This document shows, one piece after another, positions 24,309-60,884 of a DNA stretch of 64,000 nucleotides. The notes beneath the pieces were generated by a model. The model was given only the letters and a program-made list of their open reading frames with translations, did not search any database and was not told where the DNA came from. The DNA is from a virus (lineage: Duplodnaviria; Caudoviricetes). The DNA lies in the IMG/VR virus record IMGVR_UViG_3300028601_000027, positions 24,898-88,897 of that record; one strand, written 5' to 3'. How positions within the stretch are numbered: the stretch's first letter is position 1; each line of letters begins with the position of its first letter. Position numbers and translations under genes: made by a program.

Positions 24309-26024
24309 CTACTCCTGAAAGAATTGTTCATAAGATTTAATCTCTACTCCTAGTGACTTTGCTTTCTTAGTCTTACTTGTACCAGAATCAGGGTTATCTG
24401 TCAACAATAAGTTTGTATCCTTATTTACACTAGACTGAATCTTCCAACCTTGTTCTTCTAGGTGTTGAGTAAGTTGTTTGCGATTATACTTATCACACTT
24501 ACCAGTAAACACTATATTACCCTTAGTTTGATTAGTTTTATCTACTGTCTTAATAGTGCAGAAGTAGGATAGTGTTTCAAACATAGCCTTAAACCTATTT
24601 CTATTTGTAACTATATTAGTAATAGATTTTTCAGCAAATCCCTCTAGTGGGGCTAAACTAGTTTCTAAATCCTCACATGCTAGGAAGTTTTCAATAGAAC
24701 CAAAATGGTCAATAAGTTTTTGACATTGTTTATTTCCCATACCTTTAATCATAGCACATTCTAATATTTGTGCTTCAGTTAGTTCTACAGTGTTTAACAT
24801 GTAGAAAATATATTCAGCAGTCTTTTTACCAAAACCATCAATAATTTCGATGTCCTCTACTTCAGCTTCAAAGTAATCATCTATTAACTTAAATCCATTT
24901 ACATATAGTTTTTCAATAGTCGAATCACTAATGTAATCAAGATCAAATACTTTAAAAATGTGTTTGAGTAGAGTTAAGTCATTGTGTACACAATTCTTAC
25001 ACACTAAGTGTACACCGTTTTCGTCTACTTCAGAGATAGACTTACAGTTAGGACAAAACACAGGCGGTAAAATGTAACTTTGTTCTACTACAGTGTGAAC
25101 GAATGGTATTATATCCCCACTTTTTATTACCTTAACTTGAGCACCAATCCCTAATCCAGCAGTCTTAACTATTCCATAGTTAGAAGCAGATACACGACTA
25201 ACGGTAGTACCATCAATATCCACAGGCTCATCCAAAATAATAACAGGATACAAGATTCCATGTTTACCTAAACTCCATTCAATGTTGCCTACTGTAGCTA
25301 ATTCACCTTCTTTATTGAACTTTAGGGCAATGATGTTATCTGGTAATAGTTCATTATCATTACTGTAATCCCCATTACCTTCTACTACTAATCCATCAAT
25401 TTCATATTCGTGATTATTTTTGTAGTACCTAAAGTTACTCTCTAGTTCAAGATAATCAGGAGTGCTATAATAGACTACCTTAGCTAAGGTTTCAAATGGT
25501 ACTACATGAATTTTAGCTAGTTCATTTGGTATAGCTTCTTTCCTATTAATCAAACCTGACACTACATTGCGAACATTTTTCTCATAGTCTGCTTGACACA
25601 CTTTAGGCATGATAGCTTCACATTTGACACTATTAATATCGCTGGTTAGTTCTAAGAAACCCAATGCACTAGTATCACAATGCTTAATGTTATCAGTAAC
25701 ATCATTACCCTCATAACCATTCCCTCTAGTTATTGCCTGAATAATATTACCATTTTTGTTTAGAATGACTTCAATACTATTTCCATCTAGCTTAGGAGTA
25801 ACAGAAAATACAGTATTACTCTTAGCCCACTTATAGAAATCATCTTCAGTTTTAACCTTTTTTAAACTACCCATTGGGGAATGATGATTTGCCTTATTCC
25901 TGAAATTACGAGTGTCTAATCCATGATCTGAGATTAGGTTAAACTCTTCATCAGTTAGGATAGGACTATCACCATTATAATATTGTTCGTTTGCTATTTG
26001 TTTTAAGTTAGCCACTATTCTCAC
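24309..26024 (-). CDS. ligA: NAD-dependent DNA ligase
   Basis: SLKKV, PKLDG, ITRGNG, IDGLVV, SGDIIP, Cys4 finger, HhH repeats, C-terminal BRCT (IVFTG...SVNKDTNLL). Confidence 0.9.
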   Translation of the reverse strand: MRIVANLKQIANEQYYNGDSPILTDEEFNLISDHGLDTRNFRNKANHHSPMGSLKKVKTEDDFYKWAKSNTVFSVTPKLDGNSIEVILNKNGNIIQAITRGNGYEGNDVTDNIKHCDTSALGFLELTSDINSVKCEAIMPKVCQADYEKNVRNVVSGLINRKEAIPNELAKIHVVPFETLAKVVYYSTPDYLELESNFRYYKNNHEYEIDGLVVEGNGDYSNDNELLPDNIIALKFNKEGELATVGNIEWSLGKHGILYPVIILDEPVDIDGTTVSRVSASNYGIVKTAGLGIGAQVKVIKSGDIIPFVHTVVEQSYILPPVFCPNCKSISEVDENGVHLVCKNCVHNDLTLLKHIFKVFDLDYISDSTIEKLYVNGFKLIDDYFEAEVEDIEIIDGFGKKTAEYIFYMLNTVELTEAQILECAMIKGMGNKQCQKLIDHFGSIENFLACEDLETSLAPLEGFAEKSITNIVTNRNRFKAMFETLSYFCTIKTVDKTNQTKGNIVFTGKCDKYNRKQLTQHLEEQGWKIQSSVNKDTNLLLTDNPDSGTSKTKKAKSLGVEIKSYEQFFQE

Positions 26025-29257: not shown

Positions 29258-29624
29258 GTGAACTACACACTACCCTAAAGGGTAGGTGTTTCTTGGGTAA
29301 TTAATGCTTTTAATAGCCACTAAAATTTACCAAGCTAACTGGGTCATCCCAACCCTTTTTATGTTTATACTTGCATTATAATCTCTGTCTATTTCTAAAC
29401 TACATTGCTCACAACTATATACTCTCTCTGCTAATAACTGATTATACATAAACCTTGCTGAACCTATTGTCTTATTAATTAGTATTTCTTGTTCCTTATT
29501 TGGATATAACCTAAACTTATATGCTTTATTTAACTTAATCATATACTATCTCACCACCTTTCTTTATATTTTGTATTTCGCAATTCATCCACTACCCTAA
29601 AGGGTTAGTGGTTTTATTGTGAAG
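29258..29624 (-). mobile_element. Internally deleted IS200/IS605-family element (non-autonomous tnpB remnant)
   Basis: Near-identical subterminal hairpins cactaccctaaagggtaggtg (29268-29289) and cactaccctaaagggttagtg (29590-29610); right end ...GTAGTTCAC; TTTAAT before left end. Confidence 0.85.
29327..29542 (-). pseudogene. tnpB: TnpB remnant: N-terminal HTH fused in frame to C-terminal Zn-ribbon end; RuvC deleted
   Basis: [13 protein letters not shown]...[12 protein letters not shown] joined to [20 protein letters not shown]. Confidence 0.85.
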
Positions 29625-30295: not shown

Positions 30296-30784
30296 TCATT
30301 TACCATAGTCATAGGTTTTGCTAATGTTTTTAACTTGTTCCTTAGTTAGTAACTCAGCAATAATAGTAGCTTCATCTATTGACACATTATAATAATGAGA
30401 AAGCAACTTAATATCATCTAGGTTTTCGTTTTTCTTTTTAGGATACTTGAAGAACCTAAATTTCTTTTCTATGATGTTATGCCAAAATAGATAATGAGTT
30501 TTATCATCTACGTTTAAGTTGTTAGCTACTTCTGCTAAGTATATCAAGTCTGGCGCACAAGCTAAAATCCTATTTAGCATATATTGATTATACTGACCCC
30601 TAAATTCAGGGTCAGTATCAAATCTAGAACTATGGTCAGTTTTATCCTTGCTAATAATGTTAGCTATATCAAACACAGTCATCATAGAGTATATCCCATC
30701 ATGTAATAGATAGTGTAACCGAAAATAAATATAAACCAGTATATGAGATATATGAGTTGGACTAGATAACCTGTCTTCCAACAA
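30296..30784 (-). CDS. Clamp-loader small subunit, gp62-like (real start likely MMTVFD, about 30688)
   Basis: YNQYMLNR, AEVAN, KKFRFFKYPKK, HYYNVS. Confidence 0.8.
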   Translation of the reverse strand: MLEDRLSSPTHISHILVYIYFRLHYLLHDGIYSMMTVFDIANIISKDKTDHSSRFDTDPEFRGQYNQYMLNRILACAPDLIYLAEVANNLNVDDKTHYLFWHNIIEKKFRFFKYPKKKNENLDDIKLLSHYYNVSIDEATIIAELLTKEQVKNISKTYDYGK

Positions 30785-31044
30785 GCTAAGGCACTAACTA
30801 TAGTTAATGTCAAGTTTCCAGCTTTAGCATATTTAATTGCACTCATTCCAGCTAACGCTTTTATCACACCAATTGATATGACAGATAATATTATAGCTAT
30901 AATAGTGACTTTGTGTATAACAGTGGCATCACCATAAATATACCAGCTAGACCAAACATCGTAAGCTGTACGCTCAAAGATACCATTAAACGTAGTGTTA
31001 AAAATCTCATATTGTTCTACATGCAAAAAATCTAAATTCATCAT
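30682..31044 (-). CDS. Membrane protein
   Basis: Several hydrophobic segments. Confidence 0.6.
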   Translation of the reverse strand: MMNLDFLHVEQYEIFNTTFNGIFERTAYDVWSSWYIYGDATVIHKVTIIAIILSVISIGVIKALAGMSAIKYAKAGNLTLTIVSALACWKTGYLVQLIYLIYWFIFIFGYTIYYMMGYTL

Positions 31045-31064
31045 AAACTCCTTTCGCTATTAAC

Positions 31065-31229
31065 TTACCCACTAATCATTTTATCATACACCTCTTTAAC
31101 AGCATTTCTAATTTCTTCATCAGTTACTTCGCCACCACCGTTTAGTTTCTTAGGTAATTGCTTCTCAAACCAATCTTTATACTCTTGCTCATACTCTTCA
31201 ATAGTTGGGATGTATTCTCGTTCTGTCAT
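31065..31229 (-). CDS. Small hypothetical protein (54 aa, below track cutoff)
   Basis: Manual translation MTEREYIPTIEE...MISG with GGAG RBS. Confidence 0.55.
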   Translation of the reverse strand: MTEREYIPTIEEYEQEYKDWFEKQLPKKLNGGGEVTDEEIRNAVKEVYDKMISG

Positions 31230-31242
31230 AATAATTCACTCC

Positions 31243-31968
31243 TTATTTCAGTTTCACATTATTCATTAGTTCACAACTATATGCCATTAGTGGAATTCTC
31301 TGATCCTTAATAGTGTTAGTCTTGAAGTTGTAATCTGAAGTTAATACTATTGTAGCAGATACATCTTCATTGTCAATATATTTCGGAATAGCATCATACA
31401 CTTTAGTGTAAAATACTTGTGCATCTGTAATGTTAGCACAAAACTCCCTAATCTTACCAAAGTCTCTTTCACCAATAATCTTAAAGTATGTATCTAAATC
31501 AGTATTACCCTTATCTACTACTGACGGATCAGTAAGTCTATCACTAAATTTCTGTAGTTCGTTTAGCGTTTTCCTCATATCAGGAAAATGAGAATTGATA
31601 AAATAGCTTAGGATTTTCTTATTGTATTCTACATCTTCCTTATCAAGTATACCTAGAACAATCTTAGCAAAATGTTTTTTCATTTCCACTAATTCTTTTT
31701 TGTTATAAGTAAACTCAAACGTCTGTAGTCGTGATTTTAGTGGTTCGATAATCCTATGAATGTTATTAGTTAGGAATATGAATGTTACATTTTTGGAATA
31801 TTCTTCAACAAAAGACTTGAGTGAGTCCATTGCGTGAGGACTCATCCTATCACAATTATGAGTTAAAATACCATTTTTAGTTAGAAAGTTGTGATTATTA
31901 GTAACAGTCAAATTCCTAACATTCTTAGTGCCAACACTACGAATGTGTTTTATTTTCACTCGTTTCAT
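31243..31968 (-). CDS. Clamp-loader large subunit gp44, C-terminal half, led by a 38-aa C-intein
   Basis: MKRVKIKHI...NHNFLTKNGILTHN|CDRMS...FIFLTNN..IIEPLKSR..FPDMRKTLNELQ. Confidence 0.9.
   Translation of the reverse strand: MKRVKIKHIRSVGTKNVRNLTVTNNHNFLTKNGILTHNCDRMSPHAMDSLKSFVEEYSKNVTFIFLTNNIHRIIEPLKSRLQTFEFTYNKKELVEMKKHFAKIVLGILDKEDVEYNKKILSYFINSHFPDMRKTLNELQKFSDRLTDPSVVDKGNTDLDTYFKIIGERDFGKIREFCANITDAQVFYTKVYDAIPKYIDNEDVSATIVLTSDYNFKTNTIKDQRIPLMAYSCELMNNVKLK
31855..31968 (-). mobile_element. Split intein C-fragment (IntC, 38 aa)
   Basis: Block F/G: VRNLTV..NHNF...THN followed by Cys+1. Confidence 0.9.
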
Positions 31969-33181
31969 TTTTACTATTCTCCTTCATAAAATTAGCCACA
32001 CTGTTCACCAGTTTAGGACAAGCATTAACTAGTTCATTGTTAACATAAAAATCCAAATCGTCAAGAAAATAATCCTCAGTTACAACTTCAAACCTATAAT
32101 CGTTTTCTCTACACCAATCAACCAAGCTACTTGTTTTATCCTTTACGTTTTGGTTATCAAGGTTTGATTTGGGTTTCACTTCATACACGACATTGTTTAA
32201 GTTATCTACAAAATCTACCAGATATACTCTTCTTTTCTCTAACTGTGAATCATAATAAGGAATTCTAAGACATTCATATTCTAGTTCTTGATTTTTTATC
32301 CAGAATAAGGCTTCCCATGTAGACCTAAACTTATACTCTGTTCCATCAACCGTAACTTTTGTTCTAGAGTTTGCCCATGAATTAGTCACACACGGAGTAA
32401 ATTCGTTGTTCATTATCTTTCTTTTCATCGTTTCACTTTGTTTCTTATTTGATTCTTCAGAAAAATAACACTCTGAATGAGTAGACTTGTGTTCATAATA
32501 ATGTTCGTGACAACAAAACCTTTTTTCTGTTCCATTTATTTCTAGATTGAATTTAATCTTAAATGGTTTATCACATAACTTACAACGAATTAAATAATCG
32601 GGTAAATGTTTTTCAAAGTATTCCCACTCGTCAAATCCACATTTACGTAAATGGTTTTTAAGTGCGTTACCTTTACCACCATTTATGTAAATCGTCTTAT
32701 TAGTTTCAGGACAAACAAACACTTTAGAATCTGGTTTAGCTATCCCTTCACTTTTAGACTTATGTTCTAAATATTCATTATACTCTTCTATATTGTTGTA
32801 TTTTTTATGTCTTCCATTACAACTAGCGGAACAAAACCTAGCATTATCTCTTTGTTTTGGTTTGAAGGGTTTACCGCAAAAAACACAATCTCTGTATTCA
32901 AACCTATCACTCACCTTTACGTAGTTTTTATACATTTCTGTGCTTCTTTTTGTAGCCGCATCAGAATAGTTTTTGTTTACACATTCAGAAGAATCACAAT
33001 AAGGTTTGTATCCTTTGCTTATAGACAAAAATCTAGTAGGTTTGCCACAAAATTTACAAACACCTTTCCCATGTTCTAATTCATACACATGTTCTGTAGA
33101 ACACTTATGAATCCTCAATATGTGGTTTACCAGTCCTCTATTGTTATTGAATTTCTTTTTACACAAAAAACAAGTTACCAA
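31937..33181 (-). CDS. Free-standing putative homing endonuclease (multiple Zn fingers + PD-(D/E)xK, TnsA-like)
   Basis: C2H2/CxxC repeats; FRSTWEA...YLVDF...VYEVKPK; TTG start directly after the upstream TAA, with AAGGAGG RBS. Confidence 0.8.
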   Translation of the reverse strand: MVTCFLCKKKFNNNRGLVNHILRIHKCSTEHVYELEHGKGVCKFCGKPTRFLSISKGYKPYCDSSECVNKNYSDAATKRSTEMYKNYVKVSDRFEYRDCVFCGKPFKPKQRDNARFCSASCNGRHKKYNNIEEYNEYLEHKSKSEGIAKPDSKVFVCPETNKTIYINGGKGNALKNHLRKCGFDEWEYFEKHLPDYLIRCKLCDKPFKIKFNLEINGTEKRFCCHEHYYEHKSTHSECYFSEESNKKQSETMKRKIMNNEFTPCVTNSWANSRTKVTVDGTEYKFRSTWEALFWIKNQELEYECLRIPYYDSQLEKRRVYLVDFVDNLNNVVYEVKPKSNLDNQNVKDKTSSLVDWCRENDYRFEVVTEDYFLDDLDFYVNNELVNACPKLVNSVANFMKENSKNETSENKTHS

Positions 33182-33874
33182 TTAAACCTCCTTAATGTTA
33201 TTTTCCTCAGAAGGTTTACCCGATTCCAATCTATTTTCTTCAAGTGTAACTATCTCATCTCCTTCTTGTAAATCCTTCAGTTTGACTTCTATTATTTCTC
33301 CGTTTCTGTCAACAAAAAACGGGTGATCCATGTTAGCTTTTATGGTTCTGCCATCTTCCAATTCTACCTCAAAAACTTCATCTTGTTTTTCTGAAATGAT
33401 CTCTGCTGTATCATTTTCTAATTGATTAGTATCCAAATTATAAGACAACACATCGTATTGCTTGCCTAATTCAAAATCTTTCAGTTTAGTGTATGTTGGG
33501 TTATCTATAGTGCCTGTCGCAATTATTTCATTTTCTTCTAAACACTCATCCAACAAAACCATCTTCTTACCACCATCAAAACTAACAGTAGTAACAAATT
33601 GAGTTATCTTACCCCTAAGCACATCAATACTAGTCTCAATAGAACCATTAATGTATAGAGTATCACATCCTAATGTGTCTGCTAAGATAGTAGCAATAGT
33701 AGTTTTACCAATTCCCTGTTGTCCATAGAACAACATGTTAGGGATTTTGCCAGAAGACAACATTTTATTAAAGTTATCTTGAACGGTTTTAGGTAGAACT
33801 ACATCGTTGATACTAGTAGGTCTATATTTTAAAGCCCATACATAATCATCATAGAACTTTTTGTTTAAACTCAT
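33182..33874 (-). CDS. Clamp-loader large subunit gp44, N-terminal half, ending in a 120-aa N-intein
   Basis: WALKYRP, GQQGIGKTT (Walker A), VLLDE|CLEENE...GRTIKANMDHPFF. Confidence 0.9.
   Translation of the reverse strand: MSLNKKFYDDYVWALKYRPTSINDVVLPKTVQDNFNKMLSSGKIPNMLFYGQQGIGKTTIATILADTLGCDTLYINGSIETSIDVLRGKITQFVTTVSFDGGKKMVLLDECLEENEIIATGTIDNPTYTKLKDFELGKQYDVLSYNLDTNQLENDTAEIISEKQDEVFEVELEDGRTIKANMDHPFFVDRNGEIIEVKLKDLQEGDEIVTLEENRLESGKPSEENNIKEV
33185..33544 (-). mobile_element. Split intein N-fragment (IntN, 120 aa)
   Basis: Starts with Cys right after Walker B DE; block B AxxDHPF; acidic tail. Confidence 0.9.
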
Positions 33875-33884
33875 GATTCACCTC

Positions 33885-34538
33885 TTATAGAGATTTGTTT
33901 AGTAGGATATAACAAATATCGCCCTTAACAAACTTTACATACTTAGGAAACACAAATACATCATAGTCACCCCTAATGAAATTAAATAGTGAAGTGTCTA
34001 GATTTACGTCACAGCTACCGTTTCCTTCAATCTCTACTCGATACTGATTAGCCGCTGAATTATCTTCATCAAATAATGAAATCTCAGACTTATCTTCATC
34101 TACACCAATGTTAAGTGTTTTGAGTGACATTACCTTACTAGCCTTAAGGATACCATTCATTTGTTCTTCAGGTAATTCAAAACTAGCTAGATAGTCACCA
34201 TTAGCCATATACTTTTCGTACTCATTACACTTGTTGTAAATGTGGTCTGGATTACAGAAACGATAGTTGACCTTAGTGTTACCTTGATTAATAATTACTT
34301 CATCTGAGGTAAAAGTAAAGTTTAGTTCCTTGTTAGTATCAAACATCTTGATTACCTGACAAAACTCAGTCAAATCAAAAATAGAAAAGTTAGGGAACTT
34401 CTCTTCAATTTTAGCTAGACCGATTAGGTTCTTAGCTTCACTAATGTTTTTCAGATAGCCCTCTTCATTGATACAGATCGACTTGTTGATAAGACTAAAA
34501 TTTTCTAGGATTGCTAGGGTGCGTTGGGAAATTTCCAT
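33885..34538 (-). CDS. Sliding clamp, gp45-like
   Basis: MEISQRTLAILENFSLINKSI, FSIFDLTEF; upstream of gp44. Confidence 0.9.
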   Translation of the reverse strand: MEISQRTLAILENFSLINKSICINEEGYLKNISEAKNLIGLAKIEEKFPNFSIFDLTEFCQVIKMFDTNKELNFTFTSDEVIINQGNTKVNYRFCNPDHIYNKCNEYEKYMANGDYLASFELPEEQMNGILKASKVMSLKTLNIGVDEDKSEISLFDEDNSAANQYRVEIEGNGSCDVNLDTSLFNFIRGDYDVFVFPKYVKFVKGDICYILLNKSL

Positions 34539-34551
34539 GTTGTTTCACTCC

Positions 34552-34809
34552 TTAGTTAATGTTAATTTTTACACAGTTGTCATTGTCTTTACTGCATGTC
34601 TCTAGTGGTCTAAAACAGCTAGGACATACAGCAATACCATTTTCCAATTCAATTTCTAATGCTTTTACCATTCTCACATAAATATCTCTCCTTAGTTTAA
34701 ATGATTCCTCGTTACCATAACACAAATTGTTGTCGATACAAAATTGTTCATGTTCAACACATTTCTTCCAACCAATAATAGCTTCTTCCAATTCTCTAGT
34801 AGTAGCCAT
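34552..34809 (-). CDS. Hypothetical protein
   Basis: ORF downstream of promoter 34842-34870. Confidence 0.6.
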   Translation of the reverse strand: MATTRELEEAIIGWKKCVEHEQFCIDNNLCYGNEESFKLRRDIYVRMVKALEIELENGIAVCPSCFRPLETCSKDNDNCVKININ

Positions 34810-58487: not shown

Positions 58488-60884
58488 CTATAAGATTTTA
58501 CTAGATATTTCAGCTAGTTCACTGCGTTCACACTTACTTAGTGAAATGTGTGCCGCTATTGATTGGTCTTTAAATTTTTCTACTGCATACACGAGTCCAT
58601 TATTATCCGCAGATAGAAACGGGTTATCAATCTGATTGTAATCACCAGACATTACTATCTTAGAATTAGCACCAGCCCTAGTTAGTACTGTTAAAATTTC
58701 TTGCTTTGTTAAATTTTGGCAATTATGGACTACATAACCAGTATTCATATCTGTAGTAGTTCCACCGTTCACAGTAGCAACAAAATTATGATTATCTTCA
58801 ACCTCCATATCAAACACATGTTGAGATTCTTCTAATTCATTAACAGCAGTAACAGTAGTCACAGCATAATTAGCAAATTTGTTATTCCATTCATAATTAC
58901 CAATAGGCAAATTACTTTTATAAGCACAACTTTCATCTAAATAAGGACTAACTATAGAAAGCAATCTCTTTGTTCCTTCCACTGTGACGTATATGTAATT
59001 ATATGTCTTGTTTCTATCTTTTTTGTGATAACTTTTTAGGTTATTCTGTATTCCAAATTTATCCTTTAACATGTCAGATATCTTTTGGCTACTTTCGTCA
59101 TTGAAACTGTTTATGTGGAACACCACTGTATTAGAGTCAGAACTATAACTTCCATCATCCATAAAGAATATAGCTAACCCCTTTTCGTTGATTATTTCTA
59201 ACATCCAATCATCAATGTGTTCACCTCTAGGGTGTTTTATTTTTTCTGGCAACACAAAAGAATTTGTTGTAAAATCATATAAGGTTCCTTTAGAATAACC
59301 ATTATTTTCTATCTGTCTAACTTTATCTTGTCTGTTAAAAATAGTGGCTTTTTTTCTAAGGTATTGCTCTTGTTTTACGCCATGATTCACTGTCATTCTA
59401 TATGTGTTTTGTGACACTTCTCGAATAGAACCATCACCTAACCTAGACCCAATAACTACTTGTAATTGATCGCCATTCAAATAGTGACAATTTTGGCGAT
59501 TTTTCCCCCCACTCATAATTAACGGATCACCTATTTCTAATTCTCCTGCTTTCACCCAACCCTTATTAGCAACTAAGAAGGGATGGTTACTTGTGCATTT
59601 TATCCTCTTCGCTCCACTCACAATTTGAATTAATGGCTTTATCCCCTTATGGCTAACCGATATTATGTTTTTATATTCGAATTCATTAGTTGATTCGTTA
59701 AAAGTTCTAACTTTTGGTAATTCGTTTCCTCTTATATAAGAATGAAAAAGTGACCCTATTTGTATATTCCCCTTTTCGGTTGCTACTTTCTGTTTATACG
59801 GGAAACATTCATCCACGAGTATAAATTGATAAGGGATACTCCTACCCCTAATAAATGTTAATGGTAGCATTTCAATTTTACCAGCTTCCTCTAATTCTTC
59901 AAATGGGGTTCGTTTAGCCACTTTCTTACTCTTAGGTTGATCATCACTAAAACAAAATAGAAATTCTAAGTTATCCATAATAGGACCAAACCAAGGAATT
60001 AACTTTGTCTTAAGGTCCCCTTTTAAGTAACCAATATCTTTCTGAAAAGGCATAATAGGTCTAGCTACAGTTAATTTCCTATACATAGATTGTTCTAAAA
60101 CTGCTTCTAAGGCACTCGCAATAGCTATTAGACTCTTACCACTACCAGCCGCACCAGTTAGCGTCACAAGGCTAATTTCAGGGTCTAAGAGGAAGTTTGC
60201 CGCTATCTGTTGTTCTAAGTTTGCACACTCTAAACCAAATGGCGCTAACTTATTATCCATTAGTATTAACCTACCACCTTTTTGACTAGTAATAGCCCTC
60301 ACTTTAGGATCACTATTGTTAACTAGTACTACTGCTTCATTAGGATAAAACTCTTCGTCTACTCCTACTACACTCTTATCTACATAGCCATTTTCATATA
60401 CACTCTGAATTACATCATGGGAAACATATTCTTCTCTCATACCAGTGTAAAGGTTAGATACGTTTACCTTATCATCTAAGTAGTCTTCAGTTTCTATTTC
60501 TAGTACTCTAGCCTTTACTCTTAGGTTTACATCCTTTGTGATTAAGATTGGATTTTCATCACGTTCCTTTAACATTAGACAAGTGTTTAATAATTTGTCA
60601 TCAGCTACATCTTCTCCCTCAGCATGCGATAAATCTACACTATTAGGTAATTCGCTATTAGTTACCATTATCACGTTTTCATTTTTATCAATTATTTCTT
60701 GTTCGATTAGCTTAGTTACATGTCTAGCATTTACACCAACTTGGTCTGTCCTCTTTTTCTGTTTATCCAATTCCCATAATATAACAAATGGTATGTAGAT
60801 TTTATTACCATTTAGTATTTTAGTGAACGAGTTATAATCATGTATTAGTACGTTGGTGTCTAGGACATAGGATTTAGGATTCAT
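58488..60884 (-). CDS. phoH: PIN-domain PhoH ATPase (PhoH2/YlaK-like) with intein
   Basis: VLDTNVL, ELDKQK, ADDK, ITKDVNLRVKA; GAAGSGKS, IRGRS, LVDE|..|CQNL, GDYNQID. Confidence 0.9.
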   Translation of the reverse strand: MNPKSYVLDTNVLIHDYNSFTKILNGNKIYIPFVILWELDKQKKRTDQVGVNARHVTKLIEQEIIDKNENVIMVTNSELPNSVDLSHAEGEDVADDKLLNTCLMLKERDENPILITKDVNLRVKARVLEIETEDYLDDKVNVSNLYTGMREEYVSHDVIQSVYENGYVDKSVVGVDEEFYPNEAVVLVNNSDPKVRAITSQKGGRLILMDNKLAPFGLECANLEQQIAANFLLDPEISLVTLTGAAGSGKSLIAIASALEAVLEQSMYRKLTVARPIMPFQKDIGYLKGDLKTKLIPWFGPIMDNLEFLFCFSDDQPKSKKVAKRTPFEELEEAGKIEMLPLTFIRGRSIPYQFILVDECFPYKQKVATEKGNIQIGSLFHSYIRGNELPKVRTFNESTNEFEYKNIISVSHKGIKPLIQIVSGAKRIKCTSNHPFLVANKGWVKAGELEIGDPLIMSGGKNRQNCHYLNGDQLQVVIGSRLGDGSIREVSQNTYRMTVNHGVKQEQYLRKKATIFNRQDKVRQIENNGYSKGTLYDFTTNSFVLPEKIKHPRGEHIDDWMLEIINEKGLAIFFMDDGSYSSDSNTVVFHINSFNDESSQKISDMLKDKFGIQNNLKSYHKKDRNKTYNYIYVTVEGTKRLLSIVSPYLDESCAYKSNLPIGNYEWNNKFANYAVTTVTAVNELEESQHVFDMEVEDNHNFVATVNGGTTTDMNTGYVVHNCQNLTKQEILTVLTRAGANSKIVMSGDYNQIDNPFLSADNNGLVYAVEKFKDQSIAAHISLSKCERSELAEISSKIL
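58722..59807 (-). mobile_element. Intein with LAGLIDADG endonuclease in phoH (362 aa)
   Basis: CFPYKQ...CTSNHPF...GSRLGDGS...AIFFMDDGS...VFDMEVEDNHNF...VHN|C. Confidence 0.92.

Follow-up and report, generated by a model that had tools for sequence, protein, structure and literature searches.

Two open reading frames (ORFs) in the IMG/VR virus record IMGVR_UViG_3300028601_000027 each encode part of a clamp-loader ATPase homologous to gp44 of phage T4 and part of an intein, and between them lies the gene of a predicted endonuclease (Table 1). We analysed positions 24,898 to 88,897 of this record, a stretch of 64,000 nt hereafter called the window. All clamp-loader, intein and endonuclease features lie on its minus strand and are given in window coordinates.

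Structure of the locus

The N-half opens with a clamp-loader segment, the N-extein, which carries the Walker A ('GQQGIGKT') and Walker B ('VLLDE') motifs; residues 9–111 of the ORF align with positions 7–109 of the phrog_168 profile (E = 2e-35). The N-terminal intein fragment (IntN) begins directly after 'DE' with the catalytic Cys, which is residue 111 and not 112 (codon 33544–33542). An earlier note on this sequence had described IntN as acidic, 120 aa long and starting at DE/C (a slash marks the splice junction throughout). This description agrees with a match to the Pfam family Intein_splicing (PF14890; E = 9.8e-13, 48.6 bits, cut-off 35.8) and with a net charge of −20. The block B His lies in 'DHPF', and the acidic tail is ~17 aa longer than in relatives. 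The best matches among solved structures are the PolII, CDC21 and DnaE inteins.

The C-half opens with the C-terminal intein fragment (IntC), which is basic and ends THN/C as had been proposed. It matches TIGR01443 (intein_Cterm) with 33.6 bits (cut-off 15.6) and positions 121–155 of Intein_splicing. The C-extein aligns with positions 108–312 of phrog_168 (E = 3.2e-37) and with the solved T4 gp44 structures 3u5z and 8uk9 (E = 2e-12), while its match to Gp44_lid, at 26.3 bits, falls slightly below the cut-off of 27. On the profile the two exteins abut exactly (positions 109 and 108), and their lengths sum to 313 aa for 314 profile positions. Joined, they contain the Walker A motif, Walker B motif, arginine-finger region and lid domain of a gp44/RFC-type AAA+ ATPase. 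Each half was said to have its own ribosome-binding site (RBS), and Shine–Dalgarno sequences were indeed located ahead of both halves and of the endonuclease ORF.

Table 1 Features of the split clamp-loader locus and its surroundings in the window.
Feature	Coordinates	Strand	Length	Details
Sliding clamp (gp45 homolog)	33885..34538	minus		phrog_223, E = 5.3e-42; immediately upstream of N-half
RBS of N-half	33886–33879	minus		AAGAGGTG
N-half ORF	33874..33182	minus	230 aa	Clamp-loader part, then IntN
N-extein	33545..33874	minus		Residues 1–110; phrog_168, Pfam AAA, RFC small subunit NF001679
IntN	33185..33544	minus	120 aa	Begins with Cys ('CLEENE'); stop TAA 33184–33182
RBS of endonuclease ORF	33193–33187	minus		AAGGAGG; within N-half 3′ end
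Endonuclease ORF	31937..33181	minus	414 aa	TTG start at 33181, right after N-half TAA
Endonuclease, N-terminal part	32510..33181	minus		C2H2-like finger, then several CxxC...CxxxC zinc-ribbon modules
Endonuclease, nuclease domain	31940..32509	minus		PD-(D/E)xK; motifs 'RSxWE', 'VDF', 'YEVKP'
Deletion in contig X4	31993..32465		473 bp	Within endonuclease ORF
RBS of C-half	31985–31979	minus		GAAGGAG
C-half ORF	31968..31243	minus	241 aa	IntC, then clamp-loader part
IntC	31855..31968	minus	38 aa	Net charge +8; end 'GILTHN', next residue Cys
C-extein	31243..31854	minus	203 aa	From +1 Cys ('CDRMS'); sensor 1, 'SRL' arginine-finger region, lid domain
Small clamp-loader subunit (gp62 homolog)	30296..30784	minus		phrog_225, E = 7.3e-24, residues 34–157; downstream
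PIN-PhoH ATPase gene	58488–60884	minus		Second, contiguous intein
Small ORF	29327–29542	minus	71 aa	Resembles collapsed TnpB by eye

Homologs without an intein have IDE-A-D at the splice site, and T4 gp44 has DEFD (the structural alignment begins a few residues later). This comparison places the intein inside the Walker B motif, or DEAD box, with the +1 Cys in the Ala/Phe position. The ATPase site would therefore be interrupted unless the intein is removed.

The locus thus consists of two ORFs with their own starts and stops that share one intein and one host protein. We regard it as very probably a fractured clamp-loader gene like those that Dassa et al. (2009) described, its halves joined by a naturally split intein, and the two halves are probably trans-spliced. 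The earlier note had likewise proposed a fractured gene with a split intein at Walker B. This reading is supported by the domain matches above, by conservation across ~13 distinct groups, by alignment to contiguous mini-inteins and by independent assemblies.

Conservation of the split among relatives

Searching a large protein collection with the junction plus IntN yielded 14 clusters of N-halves, 199–230 aa in length (one of 280 aa), with a common stop position. One N-half from a separate assembly (P0001) is 98% identical to that of the window and also has 230 aa. The motifs 'DE/CLEENE', 'ELEDG' and 'HPF' vary little or not at all in the N-half alignment. An uncultured 462-kb phage in GenBank (LR756500.1) has homologs of all three genes, in unchanged order, at ~44% identity. 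Matches in Vibrio and Chryseobacterium phages, reaching to residue ~180 at ~30% identity, were rejected as inteins; a search with IntN only did not recover them, and we class them as uninterrupted clamp loaders.

From IMG/VR we obtained 80 loci, which we sorted by tblastn and ORF checks. The forms counted here all have their intein at exactly the clamp-loader site of the window, and the split arrangement recurs in dozens of uncultured phages. The clamp-loader gene is split, with a homologous endonuclease gene between the halves, in ~13 distinct groups of uncultured phages (L001/L006, L003, L004, L009, L011, L016, L017, L018–20, L023, L025/26, L029, L031, L032/33 and L039). It is split without an endonuclease gene in L008 and L027, where the ORFs overlap by a few bases. 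A contiguous mini-intein of 141–160 aa within one ORF occurs in 7 distinct groups (L002, L005, L007, L010, L013–15, L034 and L045).

Set against the contiguous forms, the IntN and IntC of the window align over their full length and lack only a linker of 6–12 aa. Judged from this alignment, the split lies between blocks B and F, at the canonical insertion loop where an endonuclease is usually seated in inteins. In every split member IntC starts with its own Met at one alignment column. Net charges in these members range from −2 to −20 for IntN, with the window at the extreme, and from +1 to +10 for IntC.

The four residues expected to carry out splicing (Cys1, block B His, terminal Asn and +1 Cys) show little or no variation in more than 20 relatives, and the Cys at the upstream junction (after '...LLDE') is invariant in sets of 16 and 23 relatives. 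Some relatives have SN or GN variants of the C-terminal 'THN/C' seen in the window. Canonical inteins have Thr in block B (motif TxxH) and Asp in block F. The block B His is invariant ('HPF'), and at the Thr position the window has Asn, as do several relatives, the contiguous L005 and L045 among them.

For structure prediction, the two pieces of the window intein were represented by L002, a contiguous sister intein. Its model (predicted local distance difference test score (pLDDT) 91.7) is a canonical HINT domain and matches the DnaB, PolII, RadA, gp41-1, DnaE and NrdJ-1 inteins with a Foldseek probability of 1.0, template modelling (TM) scores up to 0.80 and identities of at most 27%.

Some relatives carry further elements. 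An additional P-loop intein ('...HHN/TS') accompanies the Walker B intein in L027 (4611–5612) and L034 (4626–6239). The IntN ORFs of L011 and L027, ~150 aa long, share an extra C-terminal segment of ~50 aa ('...LEHLLR.FL...') after the splicing domain. The clamp loader of L012 (4953–6577) has a different intein a few residues downstream ('DEADGF/CLTGETE ... THN/TADAQ'), and the ORF of its N-part runs into a Cys-rich segment.

A predicted TnsA-like endonuclease between the halves

The two halves had been described as separated by an endonuclease gene, and the intervening ORF fits this description: it matches phrog_15427 (E = 7.6e-24) and Pfam Tn7_TnsA-like_N (PF08722; 30.8 bits, cut-off 26.5). 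It is in the frame of the N-half, with one TAA between them, and its 3′ end overlaps the start of IntC by 32 nt in another frame. The N-terminal ~220 aa are Cys-rich and zinc-ribbon-like, with Cys patterns common to the homologs and weak matches to Pfam zinc fingers; this array presumably serves in DNA binding or recognition. The PF08722 match falls in the C-terminal 190 aa. Across 18 homologs, S, W, D and E-x-K-P are invariant ('RSSWE', 'xDF', 'YEIKP'). They form a canonical PD-(D/E)xK set, with D99, E110 and K112 as its acidic, acidic and Lys members.

An AlphaFold2 model (pLDDT 86.5) has TnsA (1t0f and 1f1z) as its best folds in the PDB, with a probability of 1.0, E = 3.6e-3 and a TM score of ~0.45, and Vsr appears only at rank 40. 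TnsA was found by the fold search only: comparison of the sequence with the PDB, singly and as a profile, gave nothing meaningful, and an NCBIfam search found no family. Sequence motifs and model together indicate a TnsA-like PD-(D/E)xK enzyme with a zinc-ribbon array. Membership in the EDxHD family of I-Bth0305I was considered and rejected, given the invariant S, W, D and E-x-K-P and the lack of a PDB sequence match to the prototype structure 3r3p even at E = 10.

Homologs of the endonuclease occupy the same position between the halves in L003, L004, L006, L009, L011 and others. Homologs of its nuclease domain also lie beside or inside the terminase large-subunit genes of many T4-like coliphages and of Yersinia, Salmonella and Pseudomonas phages in GenBank, where the annotation of several treats them as terminase. 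Others adjoin the helicase gene of Proteus phage PM2, occur in Lak megaphages, or adjoin or lie inside PhoH genes. The T4-like phages among these carriers are cultured ones. These positions at terminase, helicase and PhoH genes are consistent with a homing endonuclease.

The genome of Campylobacter phage CP21 (L083, NC_019507.1; 1436–4300) has a PhoH gene that ends 'VIVDE/CLHEDQK...'. Next come the fragments, out of frame with each other, of a TnsA-like endonuclease (CP21_060/059, one of them annotated 'head closure') and a degenerate IntC-like ORF. From its sequence, this gene looks like a decayed fractured gene with an endonuclease of the family found in the window.

Independent assemblies and selection

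Contigs from four other runs (X2–X5), belonging to different studies, reproduce the split arrangement; in some runs, contigs covered the stretch only in part. One of them, X4, is a 6474-bp contig from an independent wastewater run, ~97% identical, in which a deletion has removed endonuclease residues 239–397 and with them the whole nuclease domain (depth 17 at the joint). A 238-aa stump remains, and the N-half, the C-half and the RBS of IntC are untouched. The nuclease domain is dispensable.

In a sample of 40 of the 65 substitutions in X4, the C-extein has 19 synonymous and 2 non-synonymous changes, IntN 9 and 3, IntC 1 and 1, and the remaining endonuclease 1 and 3. This pattern points to purifying selection on the exteins and the intein and to decay of the endonuclease, as the homing cycle predicts after an element has become fixed.

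Alternatives to a fractured, trans-spliced gene

Four points weigh against the fractured-gene reading. Splicing is predicted at the level of sequence. The window intein is atypical at two positions, having Asn both where block B usually has Thr and where block F usually has Asp. The synonymous and non-synonymous counts of X4 rest on 40 of 65 substitutions. Finally, the 88.9-kb record, which has no clamp-loader gene besides the split one, is ~50% complete (CheckV), which leaves room elsewhere for a second, intact one.

The first two points would also suit intein halves that do not splice and are mere non-covalent docking domains for the clamp-loader fragments. A precedent has been reported for a fragmented phage ribonucleotide reductase (PMC3045599). 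We nevertheless consider docking unlikely. The strict retention of all four nucleophile and cyclization residues speaks against it. The Asn variants are also shared by contiguous members, which must splice to yield a working ATPase, since an unspliced 140–160 aa in Walker B would preclude one; we therefore tend not to count these variants against the predicted activity, although they may affect catalysis.

The deletion in X4 and the single TAA that parts the endonuclease ORF from an N-half in the same frame could be taken as signs of decay, or of faulty assembly, in an intein that once held its endonuclease in one piece and was then interrupted by a stop and a frameshift. This is very improbable, given that independent assemblies of other studies show the stop and the separate starts as well. 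The split is moreover found in ~13 distinct groups at only 40–60% identity, with differing relative frames and with the Met of IntC always at the same alignment column. Substitutions in the exteins and IntN are mostly synonymous, and the gene is the sole clamp loader seen and stands in conserved gp45–gp44–gp62 synteny. Recoding by TAA read-through and frameshifting, which would yield one precursor with an embedded endonuclease, that is, a conventional bifunctional intein, would make sense of the in-frame endonuclease start after the TAA and of the 32-nt overlap, but is scarcely credible in view of the differing frame relations among homologs, the strong Shine–Dalgarno sites ahead of the endonuclease and IntC starts, the absence of any endonuclease gene from the split loci L008 and L027, and the deletion in X4, which would wreck such a precursor and yet left both halves in place.

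For a fractured gene joined by trans-splicing, the following course can be proposed. A mini-intein would have settled in the Walker B motif (DE/xD) of a gp44-type ATPase, and a free-standing homing-endonuclease gene would then have entered its canonical insertion loop. As read from the sequence, the gene would be transcribed with its neighbours gp45 and gp62 and translated as three proteins from their own RBSs. The acidic IntN and basic IntC would associate electrostatically and fold as one HINT domain, as their charges and contiguous homologs suggest. Class-1 splicing would comprise an N–S acyl shift at Cys1, trans-thioesterification to the +1 Cys, Asn cyclization and an S–N shift. It would join '...VLLDE' to 'CDRMS...' in a 313-aa subunit with a restored Walker B motif, which would assemble with gp62 to load the clamp; we infer that the clamp loader is essential to the phage. 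The endonuclease would act as a selfish driver, presumably cutting intein-less clamp-loader alleles of co-infecting phages and thereby spreading the cassette. Once the element had spread, the endonuclease would be dispensable and would then decay, a decay seen in the natural deletion variant.

Evolution of the intein and a second host protein

We built a maximum-likelihood tree of 23 inteins at the clamp-loader site; it is unrooted and gives no direction of change. It contains two deep clades (support 100/100), each with split and contiguous members, and its well-supported branches cannot be reconciled with fewer than four to five switches between states. The window intein groups with the split intein of L003 (98/90), and the sister of this pair is the contiguous L002 (96/88). 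L016, split and with an endonuclease, is sister to the contiguous L034 (100/100).

The same intein (IntN ~50% identical) is found in the Walker B motif of a second host protein, a CobS-like AAA_5 ATPase (phrog_249; 'LLLDE/C...THN/CDLAS'). There it is contiguous in L028 (3081–4628) and fractured, with an endonuclease of the same family, in L021, L022, L024 and L030. The CobS-like loci carry an intact, intein-less clamp loader 1.6–2.5 kb away, with the exception of L022, in which no clamp-loader match was seen.

We tentatively suggest, as a possibility somewhat short of even, that the intein and the zinc-ribbon/TnsA-like endonuclease form one mobile lineage. This lineage would have moved between the Walker B boxes of phage P-loop ATPases (the clamp loader, the CobS-like AAA_5 protein and perhaps PhoH) and switched at least four times among contiguous, split-with-endonuclease and split-without-endonuclease states, and its endonuclease would be an undescribed homing family. 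If so, it would offer a natural series in which to follow how split inteins arise, decay and possibly revert.

Relation to known inteins and endonucleases

Dassa et al. 2009 (PMC2677866) described fractured genes in which a split intein is accompanied by a free-standing homing endonuclease, with gp41-1, gp41-8, NrdJ-1, IMPDH-1 and others as examples. The excerpted part of that paper mentions eight host enzyme types, of which it names seven (gp41, IMPDH, DnaE, NrdA, NrdJ, ligase and terminase), and reports endonucleases of the GIY-YIG and EDxHD/Vsr-like families (PMC2677866). As far as that excerpt goes, the window shares with this set an acidic IntN of ~100 aa, a basic IntC of ~35–40 aa and a split at the canonical endonuclease-insertion loop, and differs in its host, the clamp loader, which lies outside the seven named types. 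None of the terms 'clamp', 'gp44' and 'RFC' appears anywhere in the paper. The endonuclease differs as well, being neither GIY-YIG nor Vsr-like (EDxHD); this family trait describes the 2009 set and does not define the fractured-gene arrangement. L002, the closest contiguous relative, has at most ~26% identity to gp41-1 and ~20% to NrdJ-1 in structure-based alignment.

The inteins known from other clamp loaders are contiguous. Those of cyanobacterial DnaX (Pol III gamma/tau) lie directly after Walker B (Novikova et al. 2016, PMC4760082). Like the window intein, DnaX inteins such as the Spirulina DnaX mini-intein (7cfv) sit by Walker B in an orthologous clamp-loader ATPase, their position here being the one given in that paper. 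Unlike it, they are contiguous and cellular. With only ~20% identity between the DnaX intein and L002 (rank 49), the two were likely acquired independently, as judged by sequence. The inteins of archaeal RFC small subunits are found at four other sites, mostly the P-loop, none of which overlaps the DnaX Walker B site (Novikova et al. 2016, PMC4760082); they too interrupt the clamp-loader AAA+ module, but are contiguous, archaeal and differently placed.

The endonuclease can be compared with two known types. The I-Bth0305I family combines an EDxHD motif with an NUMOD N-terminal region (Taylor et al. 2011, PMC3239194). Like those enzymes, the window protein is free-standing, has a presumed DNA-binding region at its N terminus and a restriction-enzyme-like fold at its C terminus, and is encoded between split-intein halves (PMC3239194). 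It has E...D...E-x-K in place of EDxHD and zinc ribbons in place of NUMOD/helix–turn–helix elements. With TnsA of Tn7 (1f1z, 1t0f) it shares the PD-(D/E)xK nuclease fold and a PF08722 match above cut-off, and it differs from TnsA in its homing-endonuclease context, the absence of the transposon partners TnsB and TnsC, and a TM score of only ~0.45. With this enzyme, three types of nuclease are represented in fractured genes.

The earlier note was aware of no characterised split intein in a phage clamp loader. Our literature search for a split or phage clamp-loader (gp44, RFC) intein likewise found none, with incomplete coverage that leaves absence unproven. The arrangement is that of the fractured-gene class known since 2009, with the clamp-loader host a new example and not a new kind, and the sequences were already public, though unannotated (LR756500.1, IMG/VR). 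What is new beyond the architecture is the series of contiguous and split forms, the second host protein and the type of endonuclease. The family contains closely related pairs, with versus without endonuclease and split versus unsplit, that the 2009 model of endonuclease entry predicted and of which few were available before.

If the halves are spliced, they represent a new natural split-intein family with at most ~27% identity to any solved intein (structure-based, for the contiguous relative L002). Complementary charges (−20 and +8), more than 20 natural variants and contiguous sisters usable as controls are assets of this family, and such sets of split inteins are raw material for orthogonal protein-ligation tools. 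The predicted splicing would also place a replication ATPase, taken to be essential, under trans-splicing control at its catalytic Walker B motif.

Source and gene neighbourhood

The host record is that of a T4-like phage from landfill, and the sequencing runs that contain the stretch come from landfill, wastewater and related metagenomes. No RNA run was listed among them, which bears on expression in neither direction. A near-identity DNA search against GenBank phages gave no match for it. Around the split gene, the order gp45–gp44–gp62–regA corresponds to T4 synteny, with the homolog of the translational repressor RegA downstream of the clamp-loader gene. The true start of the gp62 homolog is probably an ATG near 30685. 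A scan of 30900–34700 found no more sigma-70 promoters than in shuffled sequences, and no terminators.

Elsewhere in the window, the PIN-PhoH ATPase gene contains a contiguous intein with a LAGLIDADG endonuclease domain. This intein also lies in Walker B ('FILVDE/CFPYK ... VVHN/CQNLT'), and the phage therefore carries two inteins at Walker B 'DE/C' sites. The 71-aa ORF (Table 1) resembles, by eye, a collapsed TnpB, its N-terminal 'YKFRLYPN' being fused straight to the C-terminal zinc-ribbon end.

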